The translations under genes were made by a program, and so were the position numbers. A DNA stretch of 64,000 nucleotides, from positions 22,804 through 86,803 of the forward strand of contig JAUCBJ010004292.1 of the NCBI GenBank assembly GCA_032718475.1, read 5' to 3'. Positions 8,938 to 53,900 of the stretch are shown in pieces. This stretch comes from Nemertoderma westbladi (taxonomy: Eukaryota > Animalia > Xenacoelomorpha). Under the pieces are notes generated by a model. The model made no database searches. It had not been told where the DNA came from and saw only the letters and a program-made list of their open reading frames with translations. Position 1 is the first letter of the stretch. The number at the start of each line of letters is the position of its first letter.

Positions 8938-8966
8938 CTATTATTTTATATTATTTTATTATTTTT
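8938..8966 (+). repeat. (TATTT)n microsatellite
   Basis: Seen directly, just after the protease ORF. Confidence 0.7.
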
Positions 8967-12085: not shown

Positions 12086-12154
12086 CTGTTTAGAGTATTT
12101 TTATATTTTAGAAACTGTGATTTGTTATATTTTATAGACTTAAATCCCATTTTC

Positions 12155-12163
12155 TGGGAGCGG
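12155..12163 (+). promoter_or_regulatory. Polypurine tract (plus-strand primer)
   Basis: TGGGAGCGG abuts the TG of the 3' LTR. Confidence 0.75.
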
Positions 12164-28129: not shown

Positions 28130-28795
28130 GATGAGTCAAACAATAAAATAGTTTCAATGATTCCTGCTGTTCGCGTCGTCCTGCAATGATTCCTGCTGTT
28201 CGCGTCGTCCTGTATCTACATGAGTCAAACAATAAAATAGTTTCAATGATTCCTGCTGTTCGCGTCGTCCTGTATCTACTGTTTTTTCTACTTTAATGAT
28301 TCCTGCTGTTCGCGTCGTCCTGTATCTACTGTTTTTTCTACTTTAATGATTCCTGCTGTTCGCGTCGTCCTGTATCTACTGTTTTTTCTACTTTAATGAT
28401 TCCTGCTGTTCGCGTCGTCCTGTATCTACTGTTTTTTCTACTTTAATGATTCCTGCTGTTCGCGTCGTCCTGTATCTACTGTTTTTTCTACTTTAATGAT
28501 TCCTGCTGTTCGCGTCGTCCTGTATCTACTGTTTTTTCTACTTTAATGATTCCTGCTGTTCGCGTCGTCCTGTATCTACTGTTTTTTCTACTTTAATGAT
28601 TCCTGCTGTTCGCGTCGTCCTGTATCTACTGTTTTTTCTACTTTAATGATTCCTGCTGTTCGCGTCGTCCTGTATCTACTGTTTTTTCTACTTTAATGAT
28701 TCCTGCTGTTCGCGTCGTCCTGTATCTACTGTTTTTTCTACTTTAATGATTCCTGCTGTTCGCGTCGTCCTGTATCTACTGTTTTTTCTACTTTT
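28130..28795 (+). repeat. 50-bp tandem repeat, about 11 full copies plus partial copies
   Basis: AATGATTCCTGCTGTTCGCGTCGTCCTGTATCTACTGTTTTTTCTACTTT with period 50 (28295, 28345, ...). Confidence 0.95.
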
Positions 28796-29142
28796 AATAG
28801 AATGATATGGTTATGCTATATACTATGGTTAATTGGATTTTTAGCCTATTGCATCTGCTGTAATCTTTATCCTTATTTATTTTATTTATATAAATCCCAT
28901 TCAATCGTATTTAATATTTATTAAATATTCAAATATTTATTAGGTAACTAGAGAGCCGCTTAACTACATAAACCAATATTGGATATTGAGTTCCGTTTTG
29001 TAGTTCGCCTTACAGACACTAAAGTTGCAATAACTAATGGGCGGAAAAAAGTAAAATATCATTATTATATAGGAGGAGTATTATATATACGATAAAAAAA
29101 AGTAAAATATCATTATTATATAGGAGTATTATATATACGATA

Positions 29143-29371: not shown

Positions 29372-29704
29372 ATGTCAAATTTATATTGTTTTATTTGAAA
29401 AAAAAAATCAGTTAAAAAAATTAATTTAAAATTTTTTCAGAAAAAAATTATTTAAAAAAAGACATTTTTGTTAACGAATTTTCTGAAACTTTGTGAAAAA
29501 AAATAGATTATTTAATTCAATTTAAAAAATATTGGTAAGAAAAAGAGCATTTTTCAAATAAAATATCATATAAAATATCATCATATCAAAATAAAATATT
29601 GAGGGTGGAATTTCTTAAATTTTATTACAGTTGAAAAGAGCATCGAAGTAGAAAAGGTTTGCCAATAATTTGAGCAAAATCCATGACATACAGGCAGATT
29701 GACA

Positions 29705-30735
29705 GGCATACAGATTACAGACAGACGGACCGACAGGTATACCGATTACAGACAGACGGACCGACAGGTATACCGATTACAGACAGACGGACCGACAGGT
29801 ATACCGATTACAGACAGACGGACCGACAGGTATACAGATTACAGACAGACGGACCGACAGTTATACCGATTACAGACAGACGGACCGACAGGTATACCGA
29901 TTACAGACAGACGGACCGACAGGTATACCGATTACAGACAGACGGACCGACAGGTATACCGATTACAGACAGACGGACCGACAGGTATACAGATTACAGA
30001 CAGACGGACCGACAGGTATACCGATTACAGACAGACGGACCGACAGGTATACCGATTACAGACAGACGGACCGACAGGTATACCGATTACAGACAGACGG
30101 ACCGACAGGTATACCGATTACAGACAGACGGACCGACAGGTATACCGATTACAGACAGACGGACCGACAGGTATACAGATTACAGACAGACGGACCGACA
30201 GGTATACCGATTACAGACAGGCGGACCGACAGGTATACCGATTACAGACAGACGGACCGACAGGTATACCGATTACAGACAGACGGACCGACAGGTATAC
30301 CGATTACAGACAGACGGACCGACAGGTATACCGATTACAGACAGACGGACCGACAGGTATACAGATTACACACAGACGGACCGACAGGTATACCGATTAC
30401 AGACAGACGGACCGACAGGTATACCGATTACAGACAGACGGACCGACAGGTATACCGATTACAGACAGACGGACCGACATGTATACCGATTACAGACAGA
30501 CGGACCGACAGGTATACCGATTACAGACAGACGGACCGACAGGTATACCGATTACAGACAGACGGACCGACAGGTATACCGATTACAGACAGACGGACCG
30601 ACAGGTATACCGATTACAGACAGACGGACCGACAGGTATACCGATTACAGACAGACGGACCGACAGGTATACCGATTACAGACAGACGGACCGACAGGTA
30701 TACCGATTACAGACAGACGGACCGACAGGCATACA
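29705..30735 (+). repeat. 31-bp minisatellite (GATTACAGACAGACGGACCGACAGGTATACC)n, about 33 copies
   Basis: Direct tandem array. It is probably the expanded GACA-type microsatellite end of a HINE-like element starting near 28946 (AACTAGAGAG). Confidence 0.95.
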
Positions 30736-30847: not shown

Positions 30848-31065
30848 GTCTAACAATGTCTAAGATAAACAGGGACAACTGTTCAATCTGCGACAAGGAC
30901 TCATCGTGGTTGAGACAGAATCCCAGCCAATCACCGGCCATGTGTAGAGTTCTACTGCGGCTCGAAAAATGTGTGGAAGACCTCGAGAAAACAGAATGCC
31001 GCGCCAATCTGCAGCTACAACAGATGAAGACCTTCACTCGGGTCATTCGTTCTCACACGTTGAAG
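30848..31065 (+). CDS. RGM: RGM-family gene, coding exon 2 (N-terminal helical domain)
   Basis: Acceptor TTTCTTTACTTTAG and donor AAG|GTAAAT. Encodes ..CSIC..MCRVLLRLEKCVEDLEKTECRANL..TLK, matching the RGM cysteine pattern C..L....C......CRGDL. Confidence 0.85.
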
Positions 31066-31290: not shown

Positions 31291-31548
31291 AACTGTACTA
31301 GGAAGGCGGACACATCGGTATCTTCCATTGTCTCTACCACACCGGCTCCCAACAGATGTAATCTGTTCTACGATTCTCGCTCCGCCGGTAAATCCTTCTG
31401 CATGGTTTTTGGTGATCCACATCTAATACCTTTTGTTGGAGAGCCGACCACCTGTCTCGTAAAGGGAGCTCGACCTCTTGTTAGAAACAATTACCTCTCG
31501 GTGCAGCTACTCAATGTTGAGTTGGGTGGAGGTACAGTGACGTCAGAG
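31291..31548 (+). CDS. RGM: RGM-family gene, coding exon 3 (GDPH cleavage site, partial vWD)
   Basis: Acceptor TATTCTAG. Encodes NCT..CMVFGDPHLIPF..TCLVKGARPLVRNNYLSVQLLN..TVTSE, compared with RGM FGDPHLRTF..TCKVQGAWPLIDNNYL.VQVTN. Donor GAG|GTTAGT. Confidence 0.95.
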
Positions 31549-34272
31549 GTTAGTAACTCAGTTAATATGAACATCTACTCAATGTGGTAGAGTTGGGTGG
31601 TGGTACAGTGACGTCAGAGGTCAGTAACTCCGTTAATATGAACAGCTACTCAATGTGGTAGAGGTGGGTGGTGGGACAGTGACGTCAGAGGTTAGTAACT
31701 CAGTTAATATGAACAGCTACTCAATGTGGAGTTGGGTGGTGGTACAGTGACGTCAGAGGTTAGTAACTCAGTTAATATGAACATCTACTCAATGTGGAGT
31801 TGGGTGGAGGTACAGTGACGTCAGAGGTTAGTAACTCCGTTAATATGAACAGCTACTCAATGTGGAGTTGGGTGGTGGTACAGTGACGTCAGAGGTTAGT
31901 AACTCAGTTAATATGAACAGCTACTCAATGTGGAGTTGGGTGGTGGTACAGTGACGTCAGAGGTTAGTAACTCAGTTAATATGAACAGCTACTCAATGTG
32001 GTAGAGTTGGGTGGTGGTACAGTGACGTCAGAGGTTAGTAACTCCGTTAATATGAACAGCTACTCAATGTGGTAGAGTTGGGTGGTGGTACAGTGACGTC
32101 AGAGGTTAGTAACTCAGTTAATATGAACAGCTACTCAATGTGGTAGAGTTGGGTGGTGGTACAGTGACGTCAGAGGTTAGTAACTCCGTTAATATGAACA
32201 GCTACTCAATGTGGTAGAGTTGGGTGGAGGTACAGTGACGTCAGAGGTTAGTAACTCCGTTAATATGAACAGCTACTCAATGTGGAGTTGGGTGGTGGTA
32301 CAGTGACGTCAGAGGTTAGTAACTCAGTTAATATGAACAGCTACTCAATGTGGAGTTGGGTGGTGGTACAGTGACGTCAGAGGTTAGTAACTCAGTTAAT
32401 ATGAACAGCTACTCAATGTGGTAGAGTTGGGTGGTGGTACAGTGACGTCAGAGGTTAGTAACTCCGTTAATATGAACAGCTACTCAATGTGGTAGAGTTG
32501 GGTGGTGGTACAGTGACGTCAGAGGTTAGTAACTCCGTTAATATGAACAGCTACTCAATGTGGAGTTGGGTGGTGGTACAGTGACGTCAGAGGTTAGTAA
32601 CTCAGTTAATATGAACATCTACTCAATGTGGTAGAGTTGGGTGGTGGTACAGTGACGTCAGAGGTTAGTAACTCAGTTAATATGAACAGCTACTCAATGT
32701 GGTAGGTTGGGTGGAGGTACAGTGACGTCAGAGGTTAGTAACTCAGTTAATATGAACAGCTACTCAATGTTGAGTTGGGTGGAGGTACAGTGACGTCAGA
32801 GGTTAGTAACTCAGTTAATATGAACAGCTACTCAATGTGGAGTTGGGTGGTGGTACAGTGACGTCAGAGGTTAGTAACTCAGTTAATATGAACATCTACT
32901 CAATGTGGTAGAGTTGGGTGGTGGTACAGTGACGTCAGAGGTTAGTAACTCAGTTAATATGAACAGCTACTCAATGTGGAGTTGGGTGGTGGTACAGTGA
33001 CGTCAGAGGTTAGTAACTCAGTTAATATGAACAGCTACTCAATGTGGTAGAGTTGGGTGGTGGTACAGTGACGTCAGAGGTTAGTAACTCAGTTAATATG
33101 AACAGCTACTCAATGTGGAGTTGGGTGGTGGTACAGTGACGTCAGAGGTTAGTAACTCAGTTAATATGAACAGCTACTCAATGTGGAGTTGGGTGGTGGT
33201 ACAGTGACGTCAGAGGTTAGTAACTCAGTTAATATGAACAGCTACTCAATGTGGAGTTGGGTGGAGGTACAGTGACGTCAGAGGTTAGTAACTCAGTTAA
33301 TATGAACATCTACTCAATGTGGTAGAGTTGGGTGGTGGTACAGTGACGTCAGAGGTTAGTAACTCAGTTAATATGAACAGCTACTCAATGTGGAGTTGGG
33401 TGGTGGTACAGTGACGTCAGAGGTTAGTAACTCAGTTAATATGAACAGCTACTCAATGTGGTAGAGTTGGGTGGTGGTACAGTGACGTCAGAGGTTAGTA
33501 ACTCCGTTAATATGAACAGCTACTCAATGTGGTAGAGTTGGGTGGTGGTACAGTGACGTCAGAGGTTAGTAACTCAGTTAATATGAACAGCTACTCAATG
33601 TGGTAGAGTTGGGTGGAGGTACAGTGACGTCAGAGGTTAGTAACTCAGTTAATATGAACATCTACTCAATGTGGAGTTGGGTGGTGGTACAGTGACGTCA
33701 GAGGTTATTAACTCAGTTAATATGAACATCTACTCACTGTGGTAGAGTTGGGTGGAGGTACAGTGACGTCAGAGGTTAGTAACTCAGTTAATATGAACAT
33801 CTACTCAATGTGGTAGAGTTGGGTGGAGGTACAGTGACGTCAGAGGTTAGTAACTCAGTTAATATGAACAGCTACTCAATGTGGTAGAGTTGGGTGGTGG
33901 TACAGTGACGTCAGAGGTTAGTAACTCAGTTAATATGAACATCTACTCAATGTGGAGTTGGGTGGTGGTACAGTGACGTCAGAGGTTAGTAACTCAGTTA
34001 ATATGAACATCTACTCAATGTGGAGTTGGGTGGTGGTACAGTGACGTCAGAGGTTAGTAACTCAGTTAATATGAACAGCTACTCAATGTGGAGTTGGGTG
34101 GTGGTACAGTGACGTCAGAGGTTAGTAACTCAGTTAATATGAACAGCTACTCAATGTGGAGTTGGGTGGTGGTACAGTGACGTCAGAGGTTAGTAACTCA
34201 GTTAATATGAACAGCTACTCAATGTGGAGTTGGGTGGTGGTACAGTGACGTCAGAGGTTAGTAACTCAGTTA

Positions 34273-34310
<38 letters not shown>

Positions 34311-37300
34311 CCAGGCCTGGAGGCCCATAATTAACATAAATTACAAATTACAATAATATAATTATTAGATCACAGCACAATTTAATAGTAAAATATACGT
34401 ATAATGAATAGAGTCTATTTCAAAGTTCTAAAAATCCATATTTATCATTTCCCGTATTCTGCTTGAAGGGGCTGTCACTTCCGATATTGTTTGCACTAAA
34501 ATATTTGTAGAACTTTCGATGCGTGACCATAGTGATCGAATCGCGTTATACCGTACGTGAATGAATTTGCACAAGTTAAGCTCGCCAAACATTAGCGATA
34601 CACTGCAGTCATATTTATACCCAAATAATTTCCAGCTATATTGTTATAACCCACTCTAAATTTGTTGTATAATCTTGCGTCAAAATTGCGGCGAGCCCAT
34701 AATGAGTTACAATAGAATTGTGAACAGAAAGCTAAAAATAGTTTCCGTTTTACATTAATCGAGCAGACACCAAATTTCCTAATTAACATATTGCCACGTC
34801 TATAAAGTGCATGTAACTGATTGATAATGTCATGCCCGTCATCTGTGGAAGCATGAATAATATGGCCTAGATACTTAAATTGATCTACTTGTTCTAACAT
34901 AACACCATTTATATTAAATTTTGTTGTTACAATAGTTGTATTCGATTTCGGCACAAAACACATTAATTTGGACTTTTTCACGTTAATCTTGATTGAATGT
35001 AATTTTGTATAGTCCTCAAATATACGTAATAGCTTATTCATGCCATATGCGGAGTTTGATAACACCGTGAGATCGTCCGCATACATGCAATGGTTCGCCC
35101 TATGATTACCAATTTGACAACCTACATTGGTAGCATCAAATTCTAAGCTTAAATCATATAAATAAACATTATAAAATAAAGGGGAAAGAATTCCACCCTG
35201 TTTAGTACCATTAGTAACAAAAAATGGGATGGAATGGAAACCCCCCCCCATCTCACGCTTATACACTGAAAACGATACCAATAAACCATAACACGAACTA
35301 AATACAACGGCACTTTCCGTTCAATCAATTTACTAAAAAGTTTATAATGATTTACGAGGTCAAAAGCCTTGGATGAGTCTAAAAAGCACACATATATAGG
35401 GCTGTCATTATCTAGGTAAAATTTTATAATTTCCTTTAGAGTGTATATGGCTAGCTCCGTGCCCAACTCCTTTTTAAAACCGAATTGTGAGTCCGTTGTG
35501 TATAGGTAATCTGATATTTTATCTAAATATACATGCTCCAGCAATTTGCTAGATATAGTGGAAAGAATAATTCCACGATAATTATCGCCGTCCGTGATGT
35601 CGCCATTTCTATCTTTAACTAACGGTATCAAATCAGAAACTATACACTCTGGAGGCATTGAACCATGAATATTAATAAACGTATAAATATTTGCTAAATG
35701 TACGGTCAAATTATGAACAAGTCAAAATATGAACAGCTACTCAATGTGGTAGAGTTGGGTGGTGGTGCAGTGACGTCAGAGGTCAGTAACTCCGTTAATA
35801 TGAACATCTACTCAATGTGGTAGAGGTGGGTGGAGGTACAGTGACGTCAGAGGTTAGTAACTCAGTTAATATGAACAGCTACTCAATGTGGTAGAGTTGG
35901 GTGGAGGTACAGTGACGTCAGAGGTTAGTAACTCAGTTAATATGAACAGCTACTCAATGTGGAGTTGGGTGGTGGTACAGTGACGTCAGAGGTTAGTAAC
36001 TCAGTTAATATGAACAGCTACTCAATGTGGTAGAGTTGGGTGGAGGTACAGTGACGTCAGAGGTTAGTAACTCAGTTAATATGAACAGCTACTCAATGTG
36101 GAGTTGGGTGGTGGTACAGTGACGTCAGAGGTTAGTAACTCAGTTAATATGAACAGCTACTCAATGTGGTAGAGTTGGGTGGTGGTGCAGTGACGTCAGA
36201 GGTTAGTAACTCAGTTAATATGAACATCTACTCAATGTGGAGTTGGGTGGAGGTACAGTGACGTCAGAGGTTAGTAACTCCGTTAATATGAACAGCTACT
36301 CAATGTGGAGTTGGGTGGTGGTACAGTGACGTCAGAGGTTAGTAACTCAGTTAATATGAACAGCTACTCAATGTGGTAGAGTTGGGTGGTGGTACAGTGA
36401 CGTCAGAGGTTAGTAACTCAGTTAATATGAACAGCTACTCAATGTGGAGTTGGGTGGTGGTACAGTGACGTCAGAGGTTAGTAACTCAGTTAATATGAAC
36501 AGCTACTCAATGTGGTAGAGTTGGGTGGTGGTACAGTGACGTCAGAGGTTAGTAACTCAGTTAATATGAACAGCTACTCAATGTGGTAGAGTTGGGTGGT
36601 GGTACAGTGACGTCAGAGGTTAGTAACTCCGTTAATATGAACAGCTACTCAATGTTGAGTTGGGTGGAGGTACAGTGACGTCAGAGGTTAGTAACTCAGT
36701 TAATATGCACAGCTACTCAATGTGGTAGAGTTGGGTGGTGGTACAGTGACGTCAGAGGTTAGTAACTCAGTTAATATGAACAGCTACTCAATGTGGTAGA
36801 GTTGGGTGGAGGTACAGTGACGTCAGAGGTTAGTAACTCAGTTAATATGAACAGCTACTCAATGTGGTAGAGTTGGGTGGTGGTACAGTGACGTCAGAGG
36901 TTAGTAACTCCGTTAATATGAACAGCTACTCAATGTTGAGTTGGGTGGAGGTACAGTGACGTCAGAGGTTAGTAACTCAGTTAATATGCACAGCTACTCA
37001 ATGTGGTAGAGTTGGGTGGTGGTACAGTGACGTCAGAGGTTAGTAACTCAGTTAATATGAACAGCTACTCAATGTGGTAGAGTTGGGTGGAGGTACAGTG
37101 ACGTCAGAGGTTAGTAACTCAGTTAATATGAACAGCTATTCAATGTGGTAGAGTTGGGTGGAGGTACAGTGACGTCAGAGGTTAGTAACTCCGTTAATAT
37201 GAACAGCTACTCAATGTGGTAGAGTTGGGTGGAGGTACAGTGACGTCAGAGGTTAGTAACTCAGTTAATATGAACAGCTACTCAATGTGGTAGAGTTGGG

Positions 37301-39820
37301 TGGTGGTACAGTGACGTCAGAGGTTAGTAACTCAGTTAATATGAACAGCTACTCAATGTGGAGTTGGGTGGAGGTACAGTGACGTCAGAGGTTAGTAACT
37401 CAGTTAATATGAACATCTACTCAATGTGGAGTTGGGTGGTGGTACAGTGACGTCAGAAGTTAGTAACTCAGTTAATATGAACAGCTACTCAATGTGGTAG
37501 AGTTGGGTGGAGGTACAGTGACGTCAGAGGTTAGTAACTCAGTTAATATGAACAGCTACTCAATGTGGTAGAGTTGGGTGGAGGTACAGTGACGTCAGAG
37601 GTTAGTAACTCAGTTAATATGAACATCTACTCAATGTGGAGTTGGGTGGAGGTACAGTGACGTCAGAGGTTAGTAACTCAGTTAATATGAACATCTACTC
37701 AATGTGGAGTTGGGTGGTGGTACAGTGACGTCAGAAGTTAGTAACTCAGTTAATATGAACAGCTACTCAATGTGGTAGAGTTGGGTGGAGGTACAGTGAC
37801 GTCAGAGGTTAGTAACTCAGTTAATATGAACATCTACTCAATGTGGAGTTGGGTGGTGGTACAGTGACGTCAGAAGTTAGTAACTCAGTTAATATGAACA
37901 GCTACTCAATGTGGTAGAGTTGGGTGGAGGTACAGTGACGTCAGAGGTTAGTAACTCAGTTAATATGAACAGCTACTCAATGTGGTAGAGTTGGGTGGAG
38001 GTACAGTGACGTCAGAGGTTAGTAACTCAGTTAATATGAACAGCTATTCAATGTGGTAGAGTTGGGTGGAGGTACAGTGACGTCAGAGGTTAGTAACTCC
38101 GTTAATATGAACAGCTACTCAATGTGGTAGAGTTGGGTGGAGGTACAGTGACGTCAGAGGTTAGTAACTCAGTTAATATGAACAGCTACTCAATGTGGTA
38201 GAGTTGGGTGGTGGTACAGTGACGTCAGAGGTTAGTAACTCAGTTAATATGAACAGCTACTCAATGTGGAGTTGGGTGGAGGTACAGTGACGTCAGAGGT
38301 TAGTAACTCAGTTAATATGAACATCTACTCAATGTGGAGTTGGGTGGTGGTACAGTGACGTCAGAAGTTAGTAACTCAGTTAATATGAACAGCTACTCAA
38401 TGTGGTAGAGTTGGGTGGAGGTACAGTGACGTCAGAGGTTAGTAACTCAGTTAATATGAACATCTACTCAATGTGGAGTTGGGTGGTGGTACAGTGACGT
38501 CAGAGGTTAGTAACTCAGTTAATATGAACAGCTACTCAATGTGGAGTTGGGTGGTGGTACAGTGACGTCAGAGGTTAGTAACTCAGTTAATATGAACAGC
38601 TACTCAATGTGGTAGAGTTGGGTGGTGGTACAGTGACGTCAGAGGTTAGTAACTCAGTTAATATGAACAGCTACTCAATGTGGAGTTGGGTGGTGGTACA
38701 GTGACGTCAGAGGTTAGTAACTCAGTTAATATGAACAGCTACTCAATGTGGTAGAGTTGGGTGGTGGTACAGTGACGTCAGAGGTTAGTAACTCAGTTAA
38801 TATGAACAGCTACTCAATGTGGAGTTGGGTGGTGGTACAGTGACGTCAGAGGTTAGTAACTCAGTTAATATGAACAGCTACTCAATGTGGTAGAGTTGGG
38901 TGGTGGTACAGTGACGTCGTCAGAGGTTAGTAACTCCGTTAATATGAACAGCTACTCAATGTGGTAGAGTCGGGTGGTGGTACAGTGACGTCAGAGGTTA
39001 GTAACTCAGTTAATATGAACAGCTACTCAATGTGGTAGAGTTGGGTGGTGGTACAGTGACGTCAGAGGTTAGTAACTCCGTTAATATGAACAGCTACTCA
39101 ATGTGGTAGAGTTGGGTGGAGGTACAGTGACGTCAGAGGTTAGTAACTCAGTTAATATGAACAGCTACTCAATGTGGAGTTCGGTGGAGGTACAGTGACG
39201 TCAGAGGTTAGTAACTCAGTTAATATGAACATCTACTCAATGTGGAGTTGGGTGGAGGTACAGTGACGTCAGAGGTTAGTAACTCAGTTAATATGAACAG
39301 CTACTCAATGTGGAGTTGGGTGGTGGTACAGTGACGTCAGAGGTTAGTAACTCAGTTAATATGAACAGCTACTCAATGTGGTAGAGTTGGGTGGTGGTAC
39401 AGTGACGTCAGAGGTTAGTAACTCAGTTAATATGAACAGCTACTCAATGTGGAGTTGGGTGGTGGTACAGTGACGTCAGAGGTTAGTAACTCAGTTAATA
39501 TGAACATCTACTCAATGTGGTAGAGTTGGGTGGTGGTACAGTGACGTCAGAGGTTAGTAACTCAGTTAATATGAACAGCTACTCAATGTGGTAGAGTTGG
39601 GTGGTGGTACAGTGACGTCAGAGGTTAGTAACTCAGTTAATATGAACATCTACTCAATGTGGAGTTGGGTGGAGGTACAGTGACGTCAGAGGTTATTAAC
39701 TCAGTTAATATGAACAGCTACTCAATGTGGAGTTGGGTGGTGGTACAGTGACGTCAGAGGTTAGTAACTCAGTTAATATGCACAGCTACTCAATGTGGTA
39801 GAGTTGGGTGGTGGTACAGT
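31504..39820 (+). repeat. 68/71-bp satellite made of the exon-3 3' end plus the 5' splice site, about 100 copies, interrupted by a LINE
   Basis: Unit CAGCTACTCAATGTG[GTA]GAGTTGGGTGGTGGTACAGTGACGTCAGAG|GTTAGTAACTCAGTTAATATGAA. The first copy is the real exon end. Confidence 0.97.
34277..35725 (-). mobile_element. 5'-truncated CR1/L2-group LINE (RT), inserted in the satellite
   Basis: NYRGI..QFGFK..FLDSSKAFDLVNH, GTKQGGILSP..YADD..FKYLG. Poly(A) tail appears as a T run at 34277-34307. TSD AATAT (34272-34276 and 35726-35730). Frameshifts near the C9 run at 35241 and near 34630. Confidence 0.93.
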
Positions 39821-39821
39821 A

Positions 39822-39892
39822 TAGGTAACAGTTACATACGTCCGTTCCCTAGGTAACAGTTATATTCCCGTTCCCTAGGTAACAGTTACATT
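39822..39892 (+). repeat. Three tandem copies (28/26-bp period) of the exon-4 acceptor junction
   Basis: TAG|GTAACAGTTA with AG ending at 39824, 39852 and 39878. Only the last continues into the exon. Confidence 0.9.
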
Positions 39893-40073
39893 CCACGCTC
39901 GGGAGGGCTGCAACGACGAACAGACATACCAAGGAGGGATAGATAACTTACCCGGCGCCTTTATAAACGGAGCCAAGGATGTTGAGGGGTTTATAATCAC
40001 GAGGAACAAGGGACCAATAACAACCGTCGTTATAGAGTCGATGTTTATCGAAACTAGAGTGTCATTGAGACAG
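39879..40073 (+). CDS. RGM: RGM-family gene, coding exon 4
   Basis: Acceptor TTCCCTAG. Encodes VTVTFHAREGCNDEQTYQGGIDNLPGAFINGAK..IESMFIETRVSLRQ, compared with RGM LTIIFK..ECVDQKVYQA..D.LPAAF.DG..YIGTTIVVRQ. Donor CAG|GTAGGT. 195 nt, phase 0-0. Confidence 0.92.
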
Positions 40074-40133
40074 GTAGGTGAATTCTACTGTCACCATATG
40101 TACGGGTCCTCTTAAACGGTGGATTATACTTTT

Positions 40134-43100
40134 ATCGGCCTTTCCCTTCCCTTCCCTTCTTTATTATCTTCTAGATCGGCCCTTCCCTTCCCTTTACTTT
40201 GATTTATTCTCTTCTAGATCGGCCCTTACCTTCCCTTTACTTTGATTTATTATCTTCTAGATCGGCCCTTCCCTTTACTTTGATTTATTCTCTTCTAGAT
40301 CGGCCCTTCCCTTTACTTTGATTTATTATCTTCTAGATCGGCCCTTCCCTTCCCTTTACTTTGATTTATTCTCTTCTAGATCGGCCCTTCCCTTTACTTT
40401 GATTTATTATCTTCTAGATCGGCCCTTCCCTTCCCTTTACTTTGATTTATGCTCTTCTAGATCGGCCCTTCCCTTCCCTTTACTTTGATTTATTCTCTTC
40501 TAGATCGGCCCTTCCCTTCCCTTTACTTTGATTTATTATCTTCTAGATCGGCCCTTCCCTTTACTTTGATTTATTATCTTCTAGATCGGCCCTTCCCTTC
40601 CCTTTACTTTGATTTATTATCTTCTAGATCGGCCCTTCCCTTTACTTTGATTTATTCTCTTCTAGATCGGCCCTTCCCTTCCCTTTACTTTGATTTATTA
40701 TCTTCTAGATCGGCCCTTCCCTTTACTTTGATTTATTATCTTCTAGATCGGCCCTTCCCTTCCCTTTACTTTGATTTATTATCTTCTAGATCGGCCCTTC
40801 CCTTTACTTTGATTTATTATCTTCTAGATCGGCCCTTCCCTTCCCTTTACTTTGATTTATTATCTTCTAGATCGGCCCTTCCCTTTACTTTGATTTATTC
40901 TCTTCTAGATCGGCCCTTCCCTTTACTTTGATTTATTCTCTTCTAGATCGGCCCTTCCCTTCCCTTTACTTTGATTTATTCTCTTCTAGATCGGCCCTTC
41001 CCTTCCCTTTACTTTGATTTATTCTCTTCTAGATCGGCCCTTCCCTTCCCTTTACTTTGATTTATTCTCTTCTAGATCGGCCCTTCCCTTTACTTTGATT
41101 TATTCTCTTCTAGATCGGCCCTTCCTTTTACTTTGATTTATTATCTTCTAGATCGGCCCTTCCCTTTACTTTGATTTATTATCTTCTAGATCGGCCCTTC
41201 GCTTTACTTTGATTTATTATCTTCTAGATCGGCCCTTCCCTTCCCTTTACTTTGATTTATTATCTTCTAGATCGGCCCTTCCCTTTACTTTGATTTATTA
41301 TCTTCTAGATCGGCCCTTCCCTTCCCTTTACTTTGATTTATTATCTTCTAGATCGGCCCTTCCCTTCCCTTTACTTTGATTTATTATCTTCTAGATCGGC
41401 CCTTCCCTTCCCTTTACTTTGATTTATTCTCTTCTAGATCGGCCCTTCCCTTCCCTTTACTTTGATTTATTCTCTTCTAGATCGGCCCTTCCCTTTACTT
41501 TGATTCATTCTCTTCTAGTTCGGCCCTTCCCTTCCCTTTACTTTGATTTATTCTCTTCTCGGCCCTTCCCTTCCCTTTACTTTGATTCATTCTCTTCTAG
41601 TTCGGCCCTTCCCTTCCCTTTACTTTGATTTATTCTCTTCTCGGCCCTTCCCTTCCCTTTACTTTGATTCATTCTCTTCTAGTTCGGCCCTTCCCTTCCC
41701 TTTACTTTGATGTATTATCTTCTATAGATCGGCCCTTCCCTTTACTTTGATTTATTATCTTCTAGATCGGCCCTTCCCTTTACTTTGATTTATTATCTTC
41801 TAGATCGGCCCTTCCCTTCCCTTTACTTTGATTTATTATCTTCTAGATCGGCCCTTCCCTTTACTTTGATTTATTCTCTTCTAGTTCGGCCCTTCCCTTC
41901 CCTTTACTTTGATGTATTATCTTCTATAGATCGGCCCTTCCCTTTACTTTGATTCATTCTCTTCTAGTTCGGCCCTTCCCTTCCCTTTACTTTGATGTAT
42001 TATCTTCTATAGATCGGCCCTTCCCTTTACTTTGATTTATTATCTTCTAGATCGGCCCTTCCCTTTACTTTGATTTATTATCTTCTAGATCGGCCCTTCC
42101 CTTCCCTTTACTTTGATTTATTATCTTCTAGATCGGCCCTTCCCTTCCCTTTACTTTGATTTATTCTCTTCTAGATCGGCCCTTCCCTTTAATTTGATTT
42201 ATTATCTTCTAGATCGGCCCTTCCCTTTACTTTGATTTATTATCTTCTAGATCGGCCCTTCCCTTTACTTTGATTTATTATCTTCTAGATCGGCCCTTCC
42301 CTTTACTTTGATTCATTCTCTTCTAGTTCGGCCCTTCCCTTCCCTTTACTTTGATGTATTATCTTCTATAGATCGGCCCTTCCCTTTACTTTGATTTATT
42401 ATCTTCTAGATCGGCCCTTCCCTTTATTTTGATTTATTATCTTCTAGATCGGCCCTTCCCTTCCCTTTACTTCGATTTATTCTCTTCTCGACCCTTCCCT
42501 TCCCTTTACTTTGATTCATTCTCTTCTAGATCGGCCCTTCCCTTCCCTTTACTTTGATTTATTCTCTTCTAGATCGGCCCTTCCCTTTACTTTGATTTAT
42601 TATCTTCTAGATCGGCCCTTCCCTTTACTTTGATTTATTATCTTCTAGATCGGCCCTTCCCTTTACTTTGATTTATTATCTTCTAGATCGGCCCTTCCCT
42701 TCCCTTTACTTTGATTTATTATCTTCTAGATCGGCCCTTCCCTTTACTTTGATTTATTATCTTCTAGATCGGCCCTTCCCTTCCCTTTACTTTGATTTAT
42801 TATCTTCTAGATCGGCCCTTCCCTTCCCTTTACTTTGATTTATTCTCTTCTAGATCGGCCCTTCCCTTTACTTTGATTTATTATCTTCTAGATTGGCCCT
42901 TCCCTTCCCTTTACTTTGATTTATTATCTTCTAGATCGGCCCTTCCCTTTACTTTGATTTATTATCTTCTAGATCGGCCTTTCCCTTCCCTTTACTTTGA
43001 TTTATTATCTTCTAGATCGGCCCTTCCCTTCCCTTTACTTTGATTTATTCTCTTCTAGATCGGCCCTTCCCTTTACTTTGATTTATTATCTTCTAGATCG

Positions 43101-46100
43101 GCCCTTCCCTTCCCTTTACTTTGATTTATTCTCTTCTAGATCGGCCCTTCCCTTTACTTTGATTTATTATCTTCTAGATCGGCCCTTCCCTTCCCTTTAC
43201 TTTGATTTATTATCTTCTAGATCGGCCCTTCCCTTTACTTTGATTTATTATCTTCTAGATCGGCCCTTCCCTTTACTTTGATTTATTATCTTCTAGATCG
43301 GCCCTTCCCTTTACTTTGATTTATTATCTTCTAGATCGGCCCTTCCCTTCCCTTTACTTTGATTTATTCTCTTCTAGATCGGCCCTTCCCTTCCCTTTAC
43401 TTTGATTTATTATCTTCTAGATCGGCCCTTCCCTTTACTTTGATTTATTATCTTCTAGATCGGCCCTTCCCTTCCCTTCCCTTTACTTTGATTTATTCTC
43501 TTCTAGATCGGCCCTTCCCTTTACTTTGATTTATTCTCTTCTAGATCGGCCCTTCCCTTTACTTTGATTTATTCTCTTCTAGATCGGCCCTTCCCTTCCC
43601 TTTACTTTGATTTATTATCTTCTCGACCCTTCCCTTCCCTTTACTTTGATTTATTATCTTCTAGATCGGCCCTTCCCTTCCCTTTACTTTGATTTATTCT
43701 CTTCTAGATCGGCCTTTCCCTTCTCTTTACTTTGATTTATTCTCTTCTCGACCCTTCCCTTCCCTTTACTTTGATTTATTATCTTCTAGATCGGCCTTTC
43801 CCTTCTCTTTACTTTGATTTATTATCTTCTAGATCGGCCCTTCCCTTTACTTTGATTTATTCTCTTCTAGATCGGCCTTTCCCTTCCCTTTACTTTGATT
43901 TATTCTCTTCTAGATCGGCCCTTCCCTTTACTTTGATTTATTCTCTTCTCGGCCCTTCCCTTCCCTTTACTTTGATTTATTCTCTTCTAGATCGGCCCTT
44001 CCCTTCCCTTTACTTTGATTTATTATCTTCTAGATCGGCCCTTCCCTTCCCTTTACTTTGATTTATTATCTTCTAGATCGGCCCTTCCCTTCCCTTTACT
44101 TTGATTTATTCTCTTCTCGGCCCTTCCCTTCCCTTTAATTTGATTTATTATCTTCTAGATCGGCCCTTCCCTTCCCGTTACTTTGATTTATTCTCTTCTA
44201 GATCGGCCCTTCCCTTCCCTTTACTTTGATTTATTCTCTTCTCGGCCCTTCCCTTCCCTTTAATTTGATTTATTATCTTCTAGATCGGCCCTTCCCTTCC
44301 CGTTACTTTGATTTATTCTCTTCTAGATCGGCCCTTCCCTTCCCTTTACTTTGATTTATTCTCTTCTCGGCCCTTCCCTTCCCTTTAATTTGATTTATTA
44401 TCTTCTAGATCGGCCCTTCCCTTCCCGTTACTTTGATTTATTCTCTTCTAGATCGGCCCTTCCCTTCCCTTTACTTTGATTTATTCTCTTCTAGAGCGGC
44501 CCTTCCCTTCCCTTTACTTTGATTTATTCTCTTCTAGATCGGCCCTTCCCTTCCCTTTACTTTGATTTATTCTCTTCTCGACCCTTCCCTTCCCTTTACT
44601 TTGATTTATTCTCTTCTAGATCGGCCCTTCCCTTCCCTTTACTTTGATTTATTCTCTTCTAGATCGGCCCTTCCCTTCCCTTTACTTTGATTTATTATCT
44701 TCTAGATCGGCCCTTCCCTTTACTTTGATTTATTATCTTCTAGATCGGCCCTTCCCTTTACTTTGATTTATTCTCTTCTAGATCGGCCCTTCCCTTTACT
44801 TTGATTTATTCTCTTCTAGTTCGGCCCTTCCCTTCCCTTTACTTTGATGTATTATCTTCTATAGATCGGCCCTTCCCTTTACTTTGATTTATTATCTTCT
44901 AGATCGGCCCTTCCCTTTACTTTGATTTATTATCTTCTAGATCGGCCCTTCCCTTTACTTTGATTTATTCTCTTCTAGATCGGCCCTTCCCTATACTTTG
45001 ATTTATTATCTTCTAGATCGGCCCTTCCCTTCCCGTTACTTTGATTTATTCTCTTCTAGATCGGCCCTTCCCTTCCCTATACTTTGATTTATTATCTTCT
45101 AGATCGGCCCTTCCCTTCCCTTTACTTTGATTTATTATCTTCTAGATCGGCCCTTCCCTTTAATTTGATTTATTATCTTCTAGATCGGCCCTTCCCTTTA
45201 ATTTGATTTATTATCTTCTAGATCGGCCCTTCCCTTTAATTTGATTTATTCTCTTCTAGATCGGCCCTTCCCTTCCCTTTACTTTGATTTATTCTCTTCT
45301 CGGCCCTTCCCTTCCCTTTACTTTGATTTATTCTCTTCTAGATCGGCCCTTCCCTTTACTTTGATTTATTATCTTCTAGATCGGCCCTTCCCTTTACTTT
45401 GATTTATTATCTTCTAGATCGGCCCTTCCCTTTACTTTGATTTATTCTCTTCTAGATCGGCCCTTCCCTTCCCTTTACTTTGATTTATTCTCTTCTAGAT
45501 CGGCCCTTCCCTTTACTTTGATTTATTCTCTTCTCGGCCCTTCCCTTCCCTTTACTTTGATTTATTCTCTTCTAGATCGGCCCTTCCCTTCCCTTTACTT
45601 TGATTTATTCTCTTCTAGATCGGCCCTTCCCTTCCCTTTACTTTGATTTATTCTCTTCTCGGCCCTTCCCTTCCCTTTACTTTGATTTATTCTCTTCTAG
45701 ATCGGCCCTTCCCTTCCCTTTACTTTGATTTATTCTCTTCTAGATCGGCCCTTCCCTTTACTTTGATTTATTCTCTTCTCGGCCCTTCCCTTCCCTTTAC
45801 TTTGATTTATTCTCTTCTAGATCGTCCCTTCCCTTCCCTTTACTTTGATTTATTCTCTTCTAGATCGGCCCTTCCCTTCCCTTTACTTTGATTTATTCTC
45901 TTCTCGGCCCTTCCCTTCCCTTTACTTTGATTTATTATCTTCTAGATCGGCCCTTCCCTTTACTTTGATTTATTCTCTTCTAGATCGGCCCTTCCCTATA
46001 CTTTGATTTATTATCTTCTAGATCGGCCCTTCCCTTCCCGTTACTTTGATTTATTATCTTCTAGATCGGCCCTTCCCTTCCCTATACTTTGATTTATTAT

Positions 46101-49100
46101 CTTCTAGATCGGCCCTTCCCTTCCCTTTACTTTGATTTATTCTCTTCTAGATCGGCCCTTCCCTTTAATTTGATTTATTATCTTCTAGATCGGCCCTTCC
46201 CTTTAATTTGATTTATTATCTTCTAGATCGGCCCTTCCCTTTAATTTGATTTATTATCTTCTAGATCGGCCCTTCCCTTTAATTTGATTTATTCTCTTCT
46301 AGATCGGCCCTTCCCTTCCCTTTACTTTGATTTATTCTCTTCTCGGCCCTTCCCTTCCCTTTACTTTGATTTATTCTCTTCTAGATCGGCCCTTCCCTTT
46401 ACTTTGATTTATTATCTTCTAGATCGGCCCTTCCCTTTACTTTGATTTATTATCTTCTAGATCGGCCCTTCCCTTTACTTTGATTTATTCTCTTCTAGAT
46501 CGGCCCTTCCCTTCCCTTTACTTTGATTTATTCTCTTCTAGATCGGCCCTTCCCTTCCCTTTACTTTGATTTATTCTCTTCTCGGCCCTTCCCTTCCCTT
46601 TACTTTGATTTATTCTCTTCTAGATCGGCCCTTCCCTTCCCTTTACTTTGATTTATTCTCTTCTCGGCCCTTCCCTTCCCTTTACTTTGATTTATTATCT
46701 TCTAGATCGGCCCTTCCCTTCCCTTTACTTTGATTTATTCTCTTCTCGGCCCTTCCCTTCCCTTTACTTTGATTTATTCTCTTCTAGATCGGCCCTTCCC
46801 TTTACTTTGATTTATTATCTTCTAGATCGGCCCTTCCCTTTACTTTGATTTATTATCTTCTAGATCGGCCCTTCCCTTTACTTTGATTTATTCTCTTCTA
46901 GATCGTCCCTTCCCTTCCCTTTACTTTGATTTATTCTCTTCTAGATCGGCCCTTCCCTTCCCTTTACTTTGATTTATTCTCTTCTAGATCGGCCCTTCCC
47001 TTCCCTTTACTTTGATTTATTCTCTTCTAGATCGGCCCTTCCCTTTACTTTGATTTATTCTCTTCTAGTTCGGCCCTTCCCTTCCCTTTACTTTGATGTA
47101 TTATCTTCTATAGATCGGCCCTTCCCTTTACTTTGATTTATTATCTTCTAGATCGGCCCTTCCCTTTACTTTGATTTATTATCTTCTAGATCGGCCCTTC
47201 CCTTTACTTTGATTTATTCTCTTCTAGATCGGCCCTTCCCTATACTTTGATTTATTATCTTCTAGATCGGCCCTTCCCTTCCCGTTACTTTGATTTATTC
47301 TCTTCTAGATCGGCCCTTCCCTTCCCTATACTTTGATTTATTATCTTCTAGATCGGCCCTTCCCTTCCCTTTACTTTGATTTATTCTCTTCTAGATCGGC
47401 CCTTCCCTTTAATTTGATTTATTATCTTCTAGATCGGCCCTTCCCTTTAATTTGATTTATTATCTTCTAGATCGGCCCTTCCCTTTAATTTGATTTATTA
47501 TCTTCTAGATCGGCCCTTCCCTTTAATTTGATTTATTCTCTTCTAGATCGGCCCTTCCCTTCCCTTTACTTTGACTTATTCTCTTATCGGCCCTTCCCTT
47601 CCCTTTACTTTGATTTATTCTCTTCTAGATCGGCCTTTCCCTTTACTTTGATTTATTATCTTCTAGATCGGCCCTTCCCTTTACTTTGATTTATGCTCTT
47701 CTAGATCGGCCCTTCCCTTTACTTTGATTTATTCTCTTCTAGTTCGGCCCTTCCCTTCCCTTTACTTTAATTTATTCTCTTCTCGGCCCTTCCCTTCCCT
47801 TTACTTTGATTTATTCTCTTCTAGATCGGCCCTTCCCTTCCCTTTACTTTGATTTATTCTCTTCTCGGCCCTTCCCTTCCCTTTACTTTGATTTATTATC
47901 TTCTAGATCGGCCCTTCCCTTCCCTTTACTTTGATTTATTCTCTTCTAGATCGGCTCTTCCCTTCCCTTTACTTTGATTTATTCTCTTCTCGGCCCTTCC
48001 CTTCCCTTTACTTTGATTTATTCTCTTCTAGATCGGCCCTTCCCTTTACTTTGATTTATTATCTTCTAGATCGGCCCTTCCCTTTACTTTGATTTATTAT
48101 CTTCTAGATCGGCCCTTCCCTTTACTTTGATTTATTCTCTTCTAGATCGGCCCTTCCCTTCCCTTTACTTTGATTTATTCTCTTCTAGATCGGCCCTTCC
48201 CTTCCCTTTACTTTGATTTATTCTCTTCTCGGCCCTTCCCTTCCCTTTACTTTGATTTATTCTCTTCTAGATCGGCCCTTCCCTTTACTTTGATTTATGC
48301 TCTTCTAGATCGGCCCTTCCCTTTACTTTGATTTATTCTCTTCTAGATCGGTCCTTCCCTTCCCTTTACTTTGATTTATTCTCTTCTAGATCGGCCCTTC
48401 CCTTCCCTTTTCTTTGATTTATTCTCTTCTCGGCCCTTCCCTTCCCTTTACTTTGATTTATTCTCTTCTAGATCGGCCCTTCCCTTTACTTTGATTTATT
48501 ATCTTCTAGATCGGCCCTTCCCTTTACTTTGATTTATTATCTTCTAGATCGGCCCTTCCCTTTACTTTGATTTATTATCTTCTACATCGGCCCTTCCCTT
48601 TACTTTGATTTATTCTCTTCTAGATCGGCCCTTCCCTTCCCTTTACTTTGATTTATTCTCTTCTCGGCCCTTCCCTTCCCTTTACTTTGATTTATTATCT
48701 TCTAGATCGGCCCTTCCCTTTACTTTGATTTATTATCTTCTAGATCGGCCCTTCCCTTTACTTTGATTTATTATCTTCTAGATCGGCCCTTCCCTTTACT
48801 TTGATTTATTATCTTCTAGATCGGCCCTTCCCTTTACTTTGATTTATTATCTTCTAGATCGGCCCTTCCCTTTACTTTGATTTATTCTCTTCTAGATCGG
48901 CCCTTCCCTTCCCTTTACTTTGATTTATTCTCTTCTCGGCCCTTCCCTTCCCTTTACTTTGATTTATTATCTTCTAGATCGGCCCTTCCCTTTACTTTGA
49001 TTTATTATCTTCTAGATCGGCCCTTCCCTTTACTTTGATTTATTATCTTCTAGATCGGCCCTTCCCTTTACTTTCATTTATTATCTTCTAGATCGGCCCT

Positions 49101-50122
49101 TCCCTTTACTTTGATTTATTCTCTTCTAGATCGGCCCTTCCCTTCCCTTTACTTTTATTTATTCTCTTCTAGATCGGCCCTTCCCTTTACTTTGATTTAT
49201 TATCTTCTAGATCGGCCCTTCCCTTTACTTTGATTTATTATCTTCTAGATCGGCCCTTCCCTTTACTTTGATTTATTATCTTCTAGATCGGCCCTTCCCT
49301 TTACTTTCATTTATTATCTTCTAGATCGGCCCTTCCCTTTACTTTGATTTATTATCTTCTAGATCGGCCCTTCCCTTCCCTTTACTTTTATTTATTATCT
49401 TCTAGATCGGCCCTTCCCTTCCCTTTACTTTGATTTATTATCTTCTAGATCGGCCCTTCCCTTTACTTTGATTTATTCTCTTCTAGATCGGCCCTTCCCT
49501 TCCCTTTACTTTGATTTATTCTCTTCTAGATCGGCCCTTCCCTTTACTTTGATTTATTCTCTTCTAGATCGGCCCTTCCCTTCCCTTCCCTTTACTTTGA
49601 TTTATTCTCTTCTCGGCCCTTCCCTTCCCTTTACTTTGATTTATTCTCTTCTAGATCGGCCCTTCCCTTTACTTTGATTTATTATCTTCTAGATCGTCCC
49701 TTCCCTTCCCTTTACTTTGATTTATTCTCTTCTAGATCGGCCCTTCCCTTCCCTTTACTTTTATTTATTCTCTTCTCGGCCCTTCCCTTCCCTTTACTTT
49801 GATTTATTCTCTTCTAGATCGGCCCTTCCCTTTACTTTGATTTATTCTCTTCTAGATCGGCCCTTCCCTTCCCTTCCCTTTACTTTGATTTATTCTCTTC
49901 TCGGCCCTTCCCTTCCCTTTACTATGATTTATTATCTTCTAGATCGGCCCTTCCCTTTACTTTGATTTATTATCTTCTAGATCGGCCCTTCCCTTCCCTT
50001 TACTTTGATTTATTCTCTTCTAGATCGGCCCTTCCCTTCCCTTTACTTTGATTTATTCTCTTCTAGATCGGCCCTTCCCTTCCCTTTACTTTGATTTATT
50101 ATCTTCTATAGATCGGCCCTTC
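40134..50122 (+). repeat. 38/43-bp pyrimidine-rich satellite made of the 3' splice site plus the first 11 nt of exon 5, about 245 copies
   Basis: Unit CCTTTACTTTGATTTATT(A/C)TCTTCTAG|ATCGGCCCTTC[CCTTC]. The last copy is the real acceptor. Confidence 0.97.
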
Positions 50123-50564
50123 ACTCTCCGTTGGAGTACAGATGCCATCTAGTTTGACCTCAACCTACAATCCAACGTACTCCAGTACTGAACTCTGCAC
50201 TGCGGGTTGCCCTGCCAACCAACAGCTGTCTGACACTAGATGGCGGCACGCAGCTGACTCCTCCCTCACTCACGCTCAGGCTATGAAACATTGTTCCCAA
50301 CTATCTGACTTCTATTACCGAGCGTGTGTGTTTGATCTGGTTACTACGGGAGACCTGAACCTTGTGGCGGCTTCCCGTTTAGCTAGGGACGACGTTGCGG
50401 CTCTACGTACAGACTGGTTGGAGCCGGCTACCACCCGGGGGGTCTACCCTCCGTCCGTGACCTACTCCTGCGCGAGTCTCTTACATACAAGCCGGACTCC
50501 CCACCCCATGGTCTGTTACGTCATTGTAATATTACTGTCTAGTTGGGTCGCTATACCCACATAA
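50112..50564 (+). CDS. RGM: RGM-family gene, last coding exon (C-terminal domain and GPI-type signal)
   Basis: IGPSLSVGVQMP..ELCTAGCP..QQL..A..HC..DFYYRACVFDLVTTGDLN..AA..A.DD, compared with RGM YFQACVFDLLTTGD.NF. Ends in a hydrophobic C-terminus, MVCYVIVILLSSWVAIPT*. Confidence 0.95.
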   Translation: MGPSLSVGVQMPSSLTSTYNPTYSSTELCTAGCPANQQLSDTRWRHAADSSLTHAQAMKHCSQLSDFYYRACVFDLVTTGDLNLVAASRLARDDVAALRTDWLEPATTRGVYPPSVTYSCASLLHTSRTPHPMVCYVIVILLSSWVAIPT

Positions 50565-50938: not shown

Positions 50939-53900
50939 ACAATCGTAGTCAGTAGCAACCGTAGTTAGTAGCAACCGTAGTCAGTAGCAACCATAGTCAG
51001 GGCCTTAGACTATAACTACTGTATCTCTTACAACCGTAGTCAGTAGCAACCGTAGTCAGGCCTTAGACTATAACTACTGTATCTCTTACAACCGTAGTCA
51101 GTAGCAACCGTAGTCAGGGCCTTAGACTATAACTACTGTATCTCTTACAACCGTAGTCAGTAGCAACCATAGTCAGGCCTTAGACTATAACTACTGTATC
51201 TCTTACAACCGTAGTCAGTAGCAACCGTAGTCAGGGCCTTAGACTATAACTACTGTATCTCTTACAACCGTAGTCAGGGCCTTAGACTATAACTACTGTA
51301 TCTCTTACAACCGTAGTCAGTAGCAACCGTAGTCAGGCCTTAGACTATAACTACTGTATCTCTTACAACCGTAGTCAGGGCCTTAGACTATAACTACTGT
51401 ATCTCTTACAACCGTAGTCAGTAGCAACCATAGTCAGGGCCTTAGACTATAACTACTGTATCTCTTACAACCGTAGTCAGGCCTTAGACTATAACTACTG
51501 TATCTCTTACAACCGTAGTCAGTAGCAACCGTAGTCAGGCCTTAGACTATAACTACTGTATCTCTTACAACCGTAGTCAGTAGCAACCGTAGTCAGGGCC
51601 TTAGATTATAACTACTGTATCTCTTACAACCGTAGTCAGTAGCAACCATAGTCAGGGCCTTAGACTATAACTACTGTATCTCTTACAACCGTAGTCAGTA
51701 GCAACCGTAGTCAGGGCCTTAGACTATAACTACTGTATCTCTTACAACCGTAGTCAGTAGCAACCATAGTCAGGCCTTAGACTATAACTACTGTATCTCT
51801 TACAACCGTAGTCAGTAGCAACCGTAGTCAGGGCCTTAGACTATAACTACTGTATCTCTTACAACCGTAGTCAGGGCCTTAGACTATAACTACTGTATCT
51901 CTTACAACCGTAGTCAGTAGCAACCGTAGTCAGGCCTTAGACTATAACTACTGTATCTCTTACAACCGTAGTCAGTAGCAACCGTAGTCAGGGCCTTAGA
52001 CTATAACTACTGTATCTCTTACAACCGTAGTCAGTAGCAACCATAGTCAGGCCTTAGACTATAACTACTGTATCTCTTACAACCGTAGTCAGTAGCAACC
52101 GTAGTCAGGGCCTTAGACTATAACTACTGTATCTCTTACAACCGTAGTCAGGGCCTTAGACTATAACTACTGTATCTCTTACAACCGTAGTCAGTAGCAA
52201 CCGTAGTCAGGCCTTAGACTATAACTACTGTATCTCTTACAACCGTAGTCAGTAGCAACCATAGTCAGGCCTTAGACTATAACTACTGTATCTCTTACAA
52301 CCGTAGTCAGGCCTTAGACTATAACTACTGTATCTCTTACAACCGTAGTCAGTAGCAACCGTAGTCAGGGCCTTAGACTATAACTACTGTATCTCTTACA
52401 ACCGTAGTCAGGGCCTTAGACTATAACTACTGTATCTCTTACAACCGTAGTCAGTAGCAACCGTAGTCAGGGCCTTAGACTATAACTACTGTATCTCTTA
52501 CAACCGTAGTCAGGGCCTTAGACTATAACTACTGTATCTCTTACAACCGTAGTCAGTAGCAACCGTAGTCAGGCCTTAGACTATAACTACTGTATCTCTT
52601 ACAACCGTAGTCAGTAGCAACCATAGTCAGGCCTTAGACTATAACTACTGTATCTCTTACAACCGTAGTCAGGCCTTAGACTATAACTACTGTATCTCTT
52701 ACAACCGTAGTCAGTAGCAACCGTAGTCAGGGCCTTAGACTATAACTACTGTATCTCTTACAACCGTAGTCAGGGCCTTAGACTATAACTACTGTATCTC
52801 TTACAACCGTAGTCAGTAGCAACCGTAGTCAGGCCTTAGACTATAACTACTGTATCTCTTACAACCGTAGTCAGTAGCAACCATAGTCAGGGCCTTAGAC
52901 TATAACTACTGTATCTCTTACAACCGTAGTCAGTAGCAACCGTAGTCAGGGCCTTAGACTATAACTACTGTATCTCTTACAACCGTTGAGTTTAGTTGAG
53001 TTGAGTTTATTTATTCCTCAATAAAAACGAAATAATTCATGAGTAATTGCACAGCAGACTGTAATCTGCTGGGTACTGTGTGGGTGGTCCTCCACTATAG
53101 CAAATCGCTAGTTCAGCTTCGGAACACCCACATACCATGGAGGAAAAGGGGTGTTTGTATATATTTTAGAACACATGACTAAGACCTAATGTAACTGTTG
53201 TTGACTGAAATTGTGGCAGCATAAATAGTATGTCAAACATTAAAATATAATTGGCAAATGCAATGGTATGTAAAATCAGTTGTTGTGAGTGTATATATTA
53301 TTACTGGTTTGTAAAAATATAAAATCGAGTTTGGCTGGTAATACTGATCTGAAATGAAATCTATGGCAGTATCTTGTAATTTTAAGAGATTTTGAGCAAG
53401 TAATTCTTAAGTTTTAATTTAAAGATATTCAGACTGGAGCTGCTACGGATATTTTGTGGCAAGGAGTTCCAGAGTAAAGGGCCTTGAACAGATACAGACT
53501 GGTGACGGACAATAAGACGGACATGTGGCAGGTGGTACAGACCAGCGGAGGCAGAGCGGGTGTTGTAGGAGTGCACTGAAGAAGCCCTGGTGAACAAGTG
53601 GGAAAGAGGGTGGGAGGGGTTACTATGAATATCGTACATTAGTGAGAGGACCTGGAATTGGAAAAGTTGATCTATAGGTAGTATACGTAGTTGTTGGTAG
53701 ATTGGAAAGGCGGAGGACCGGTAGTGGCTAAATGTAATACATCGTAGAATTTTATTTAGTTTTGTTCGCAAAGGTTTGGTGATGGTATTGTAGGTGCCAC
53801 CCCAGACAATGAGACCATAGTAGATGTATGGATATATTAACGAGTAAAAGAGCATCCGTAAAATCTGTGGGCTGAGAATATGACGTAATTTATAGAAAAG

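Follow-up and report, generated by a model that had tools for sequence, protein, structure and literature searches.

Tandem repeats that span an exon boundary have been described before. In lancelets, "mirage" minisatellites occur in Adh3, the globin genes BflGb6 and BflGb9, troponin C, and PGBD5, where splicing is undisturbed by the array (PMC3087553, PMC3902484). Human boundary-spanning VNTRs include those of F7 intron 7 (37 bp x 5-9), 6-16 (25 pseudo-sites), CBS intron 13, LMNB2, and PDGF; in F7 the most upstream of the identical donors was shown experimentally to be the one used, and in 6-16 and CBS the next two donors are used as well (PMC1557585). In human ABCA7 intron 18 a VNTR extends to as many as 427 copies over 10,678 bp, and greater VNTR length raises exon skipping (PMC5954066).

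An RGM gene in the window (the whole 64,000-nucleotide stretch of Nemertoderma westbladi DNA analyzed here) carries three arrays of this kind, one at each of three junctions: the exon-3 donor, the exon-4 acceptor, and the exon-5 acceptor (Tandem Repeats Finder). The arrays are copies of the splice junctions of an intact, correctly spliced gene, probably initiated by slipped duplication, enlarged by unequal exchange, and tolerated because the site that borders the true exon is chosen. Like lancelet mirages, whose units measure 10-160 nt, they are tandem copies over donor and acceptor boundaries in an invertebrate-type setting with correct mRNA splicing. The terminal copy of each of the three arrays spans the true boundary, and a large number of units, though not every one, retain the splice signal. 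In contrast to lancelet BflGb6, with 3-6 units, the two large RGM arrays have 99 and about 245 units and cover 7-10 kb each. Unlike the mirages as there described, the RGM arrays from both ends of an intron meet, so that intron 3 otherwise holds only a LINE.

As in the human VNTRs, the first donor-array unit lies over the exon-donor boundary and is followed by identical pseudo-donors, the most upstream site apparently being the one used. The human arrays, as there described, are on the donor side only and have copy numbers several-fold below those of the RGM arrays, and the scanning model proposed for F7 is silent on an acceptor ladder like that of RGM intron 4. ABCA7 is comparable in scale, and its unit begins with the donor GT; in contrast to the RGM donor array, its first unit lacks exonic bases, and the array is again described for the donor side only. 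A preliminary description had presented the RGM arrangement as new, whereas the class is already described (PMC3087553, PMC1557585, PMC5954066), and the RGM arrays probably represent the extreme of a repeat type that is already known and that cells tolerate. A literature search, conducted largely outside subscription journals and supplements, returned neither an account of an acceptor ladder with copies in the hundreds nor a report of genome-wide enrichment of arrays at junctions.

The RGM gene is intact, and its four homology-bearing exons join in frame without a stop (Table 1). The RGM_C profile runs consecutively over exons 3, 4, and 5 (Pfam), although the exon-4 piece, like RGM_N, falls below the Pfam cut-off when taken alone. 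The gene has all the features of the RGM family: RGM_N and RGM_C regions, the GDPH motif, and a hydrophobic C-terminal tail. With the candidate signal exon included, the model comprises 393 aa, with GDPH at residue 133 and a tail hydropathy of 1.66. A rival candidate for the signal exon, near 18792-18873, has a slightly higher hydrophobicity score than the one listed. The best relatives of exon 5 share only about 26-50% identity with it, within short stretches, and the named homologues among the 10 looked up are a nemertean RGM and fish hemojuvelins. A word-index search returned 1 hit, and the Atlas contained no match scoring above 0.76. The transcript extends past the stop codon to at least 50700.

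Table 1. Exons of the RGM gene and repeats associated with its introns (window coordinates; a slash within a motif marks the splice cut)
Feature	Position	Strand	Description
50-nt x 11 array	28245..28794	+	copies the pyrimidine tract of the candidate signal-peptide exon
Candidate exon 1	28801..28859	+	hydrophobic 19-codon start, phase 1; inferred only
RGM exon 2	30848..31065	+	Pfam RGM_N, E 0.0015, alone below the Pfam cut-off
RGM exon 3	31291..31548	+	GDPH cleavage motif; RGM_C profile 3-50
Donor-junction array	31504..39820	+	period 71; 99 units, mostly 68/71 nt; 98 GT donors
LINE	34276..35725	-	5'-truncated; reverse-transcriptase stretch in two frames; poly(A) tail
Exon-4 acceptor array	39822..39894	+	period 26, 2.7 copies; three copies of 26-28 nt
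RGM exon 4	39879..40073	+	RGM_C profile 58-127; both ends in an intron-free contig
Non-array part of intron 4	40074..40133	+	carries the true donor CAG/GTAGGT
Acceptor-junction array	40134..50122	+	period 38/43; about 245-247 copies of 38-48 nt
RGM exon 5, coding part	50112..50564	+	RGM_C profile 129-236; ends in a hydrophobic tail and the stop codon

Tandem repeats account for 53% of the window and for 83% of the interval 28801-50564; as repeats, the arrays are far outside chance. The 3'-terminal 45 nt of exon 3 double as the first donor-array unit, which consists of these 45 exonic nt plus 23 intron nt (68 nt); the 71-nt form is the same unit with a GTA insertion. Forty unit starts lie to the left and 59 to the right of the 1450-nt LINE, which interrupts the array within a single unit. 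The GT is kept in 98 of the 99 units, and the complete AG/GT is intact in 94. The donor array stops mid-unit, and the exon-4 acceptor copies start one base later, each of the three reading AG/GTAACA, at once acceptor-like and donor-like, with a match to the U1 consensus at 6 of 9 positions. Within exons 4 and 5, the terminal units overlap coding sequence by 16 and 11 nt, respectively. The copy numbers given in the preliminary description (about 100, 3, and about 245) agree with the 99, 3, and about 245 found, and its intron lengths (8330 nt for intron 3, 10038 nt for intron 4) are correct. Its statement that intron 3 is nearly devoid of unique sequence besides one LINE also stands, a single base lying outside the arrays and the LINE, as does its figure of about 60 unique nt in intron 4: exactly 60 nt precede the array, the last 15 or so perhaps representing a decayed, AG-less unit (by eye).

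The acceptor-junction array has 244 branch-like anchors and, among its 243 anchor-to-anchor units, 47 unit variants. It contains 215 decoy TAG acceptors in addition to the true one, the remaining units being without AG. None of its sites is AG/GT; the decoys read AG/AT, AG/TT, or AG/AG. Only 25 GT dinucleotides occur in its 10 kb. Selection was weighed as an explanation of this scarcity and dismissed, since the scarcity reflects one GT-less unit, about 16% by composition. The motif CCCTTC occurs at both breakpoints of the acceptor unit, a microhomology that fits slipped duplication. The 28 full-length unit variants of the donor array and the 47 of the acceptor array, duplicated blocks as long as 534 and 388 nt, and the interrupting LINE all fit ordinary satellite turnover. 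Six acceptor units (41722, 41924, 42007, 42366, 44859, and 47108) share a TA insertion with the true exon-5 acceptor; each of them carries a change in its branch-like block, which leaves the true acceptor unique across 27 nt.

Evidence on splicing comes from contigs of sequencing runs. A run search listed 8 runs, of which 4 (X1-X4) contain the exon-5 stretch, all labelled as probable DNA, and these four were compared against 39805-40160. X1 yields a single 1937-nt contig that covers only 39877-40073 of this stretch and then continues with the letters at 50112. In this contig exon 4 is preceded by the exonic half of a donor unit and is entered at the third and last acceptor, 39879, and the contig runs unbroken across the exon 3/4 junction. 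X4, from a sample and study other than those of X1, covers 39944-40073 and likewise passes straight to 50112. No contig of either run extends into the intronic flanks, and because their contigs are free of introns, both are taken as RNA. A retrocopy in DNA, considered as their source, is disfavoured by the uncovered flanks. Upstream of 39944 the X4 contig leaves exon 4 for 159 letters that match nothing in the stretch compared, probably a chimera. The RGM gene is thus expressed and, in its assembled transcripts, correctly spliced.

Two junctions had been proposed in the preliminary description. The joint 40073^50112 is present in contigs from two studies, those of X1 and X4. For 31548^39879, the entry at 39879 from a donor-type unit is directly visible in X1, whereas the identity of the donor copy is deduced from 30 letters and assembly logic. 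Of the 30 letters visible before exon 4, 29 agree with the exonic copy, and all 30 agree with 8 internal copies. We infer that they represent an allele of exon 3, since an unbroken de Bruijn contig should not cross a shared 30-mer twice. Splicing at the exon-bordering site, as in lancelet mirages, is therefore seen in the contigs for the acceptors and deduced for the donor copy. Contigs drop rare forms, and use of decoys at a low level is compatible with X1 and X4. The transcript in X1 thus differs from exon 3 of the window by one silent change; the site is 31518, in a Val codon, with copies at 32757, 36642, and 36923. The exonic 45-mer of the window recurs exactly in 3 internal array copies. 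The silent variant and the repeated 45-mer both fit exchange of sequence between the array and the coding exon.

Use of any other copy as a simple alternative site interrupts the reading frame. From each of the 97 downstream donors, translation runs into a stop at codon 99 of the exon-3 frame. Entry at either of the two upstream exon-4 acceptors also ends in a stop, and after any intron-4 decoy a stop is reached within about 156 codons. To this extent the earlier claim that only copies touching an exon give a clean frame is borne out; it does not extend to separate micro-exons, because 73 of the 74 donor-array units bounded by AG and GT are in frame and stop-free when read in this way, with potential lengths of 42, 45, or 48 nt. 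Expressed as pyrimidines among 17 positions, the AG/GT sites of the donor array have a mean of 6.6 and a maximum of 8, and the five true or candidate acceptors have 11-13. The ladder of intron 4 is of a different character: its decoys average 13.4, versus 12 for the true exon-5 acceptor, and the first of them lies about 100 nt from the donor. Since the decoys are both richer in pyrimidines and made earlier, site strength and order of synthesis alike favour a decoy. First-come splicing would choose the first one, and use of the last site therefore requires a mechanism.

Exon definition is the likeliest reason for use of the last acceptor. In terminal-exon definition, the last acceptor is coupled to the 3' end of the transcript. 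The arrays would have started as short slipped duplications over an exon edge and then grown by ordinary unequal exchange within a repeat-prone genome. Duplication across a donor would leave the true site first, and duplication across an acceptor would leave it last; with the coding sequence untouched, growth of the array would be nearly neutral. The arrays would persist since the spliceosome chooses the site bordering the true exon. At intron 3, the first donor may win via pairing across exon 3 together with 5'-to-3' scanning (cf. human F7). At intron 4, the common unit has no GT and almost no decoy is followed by a donor, so decoys could not close as internal exons, and the last acceptor, which alone adjoins exon 5 and the 3' end, would win by terminal-exon definition. 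Mis-spliced products would carry early stops and be lost. Later deletions may have taken out most of the original intron, and the LINE would have entered the completed array. Neither AATAAA nor ATTAAA occurs between the stop codon and 52986, which weighs against this reading, since terminal-exon definition needs a 3' end.

The preliminary description held that the spliceosome either ignores the decoys or works through them stepwise. In the assembled form they are bypassed, as the first option states, and stepwise use fails through most of intron 4: its acceptors (AG/AT or AG/TT) regenerate no GT, with only the 25 GT noted above in 10 kb, and this route is closed. Recursive splicing calls for an AG/GT with a real upstream 3' splice signal, a combination found neither in intron 4 nor in the donor array; the two extra AG/GTAACA sites of the three-copy array are the only ones that could plausibly serve it. 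The broader proposal that the copies are in use, the donor array supplying in-frame 42/45-nt micro-exons or recursive AG/GT sites and the three-copy array being cut stepwise, is quite improbable. It draws on the in-frame, stop-free donor units, on the AG/GT present in 94 of them and in all three exon-4 acceptor copies, and on the match of the latter to U1. There are also precedents: human UBC employs tandem dual-specific sites (PMC10809524), and in ABCA7 a second donor is functional as well (PMC5954066). UBC resembles the RGM donor and three-copy arrays in its tandem AG/GT sites, but in UBC these sites function in splicing and lie in coding repeats, whereas the contigs of RGM reveal no use of the copies. 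No AG that would open a micro-exon or a recursive cut has more than 8 pyrimidines in 17, neighbouring exon-4 acceptor units are just 26 nt apart, and intron 4 offers no recursive cut at any of its 215 AG/AT, AG/TT, or AG/AG sites. The unbroken passage of X1 across the junction, with no micro-exon use in the assembled contigs, also argues against it, and the in-frame property itself follows simply from the start of the duplication at a CAG codon that is in frame. Once spliced, the exon 3/4 junction (31546-31548 joined to 39879-39884) reads GAG/GTAACA and is itself donor-like; re-splicing there would remove the 195-nt exon 4 in frame.

Still less probable is the view that the arrays are real and their length inflated by assembly. 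Array length is taken from one haplotype and from the assembly alone, of which X2 or X3 may be the source. However, the 28 donor and 47 acceptor unit variants, the irregular higher-order blocks, and the embedded LINE all speak for true length. X2 (from the same sample as X4) and X3 are DNA runs, and each yields one 399-nt contig, 39791-40189, identical to the k=31 unitig that the window sequence predicts. Because the contig ends match the predicted branch points, the arrays branch identically in two DNA runs.

Growth from junctions raises the possibility of a bias in birth, that is, that short duplications arise preferentially at splice junctions, perhaps through breaks or R-loops tied to splicing, and that introns are rebuilt in this way across the genome. 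The span 22374-50564 contains 10 arrays, of which 3 cross a junction, versus 1.05 expected when each array is reduced to a single unit and positioned randomly; 7 cross none. Among these, the array upstream of candidate exon 1 ends 4 nt short of its AG and so abuts the junction without including it, and the lancelet report deems the pattern possibly general in that animal (PMC3087553). The P value for three crossings depends on the LINE. With its 1450 nt kept as intron, P is 0.030, 0.012, or 0.002; with the LINE removed, P is 0.077 for the 10 arrays and 0.074 or 0.123 by span. The LINE came later, and the second set is therefore favoured, although lost intron sequence would favour the first. 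Placement of the arrays on junctions is thus suggestive and only borderline beyond chance, in a single gene chosen by eye, for the pattern, from many. Moreover, in introns of about 100 nt most duplications of 40-70 nt necessarily cross a junction. A preferential birth at junctions is an unlikely reading, and the still wider claim that introns are rebuilt genome-wide from their own junctions, with strict exon definition and exchange of sequence between array and exon, is about as unlikely. Three other intronic arrays, at 23466-26953, 27361-27975, and 29701-30734 (units of 16, 17, and 31 nt), lie clear of every splice junction in the gene model.

The age of the introns was compared among 101 homologous ORFs gathered as homologues of exon 5. 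In 13 a non-homologous run ending in Q stands right before the first residue of exon 4; with one spliced model dropped, 12 of the 101 show what resembles a translated acceptor where exons 3 and 4 meet. This shared position makes intron 3 older than its arrays, and gain of intron 3 by tandem duplication of AG/GT was rejected on the same ground. Ninety of the 101, the 12 among them, align across the exon 4/5 position, which implies that intron 4 is absent from them, and intron 4 may be lineage-restricted. Its origin via AG/GT duplication was also rejected, the junction being CAG/ATC and the donor side unique. In two entries (P0004 and P0105), a genomic RGM ORF of another animal begins at the exon 4/5 boundary, with a longer cluster mate running upstream, a weak hint that intron 4 could be shared. 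Collapsing the arrays leaves 36 nt of intron 3 and about 90 nt of intron 4. A length of 36 nt is too short for an ordinary intron, so original intron-3 sequence was deleted as well. The proposal that small introns expanded about 100-fold accordingly holds for growth by amplification of junction-spanning units, whereas the 100-fold figure is unreadable for intron 3.

The RGM locus is a natural experiment on how one splice site is picked among hundreds. Its standout feature is the acceptor ladder, in which 215 decoys that average more pyrimidines than the true site are bypassed for the last one, 10 kb on; intron 4 pits first-come splicing against terminal-exon definition within one gene. Were enrichment at junctions to prove genome-wide, it would suggest that splicing and the birth of satellites are linked through mutation, and that introns can grow by a route that does not involve transposons.

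Other repeats surround the gene. Downstream of it lies a 13-kb array with a 59-nt unit (50940-63973), interrupted by a second LINE (52987-55250, minus strand) with a 622-codon open frame. Upstream, an element at 567-13346 carries gag/protease-like frames and, at about 567-1746 and 12165-13346, long direct repeats (by eye); it lies inserted in a LINE, the halves of which are found on both sides (by eye).
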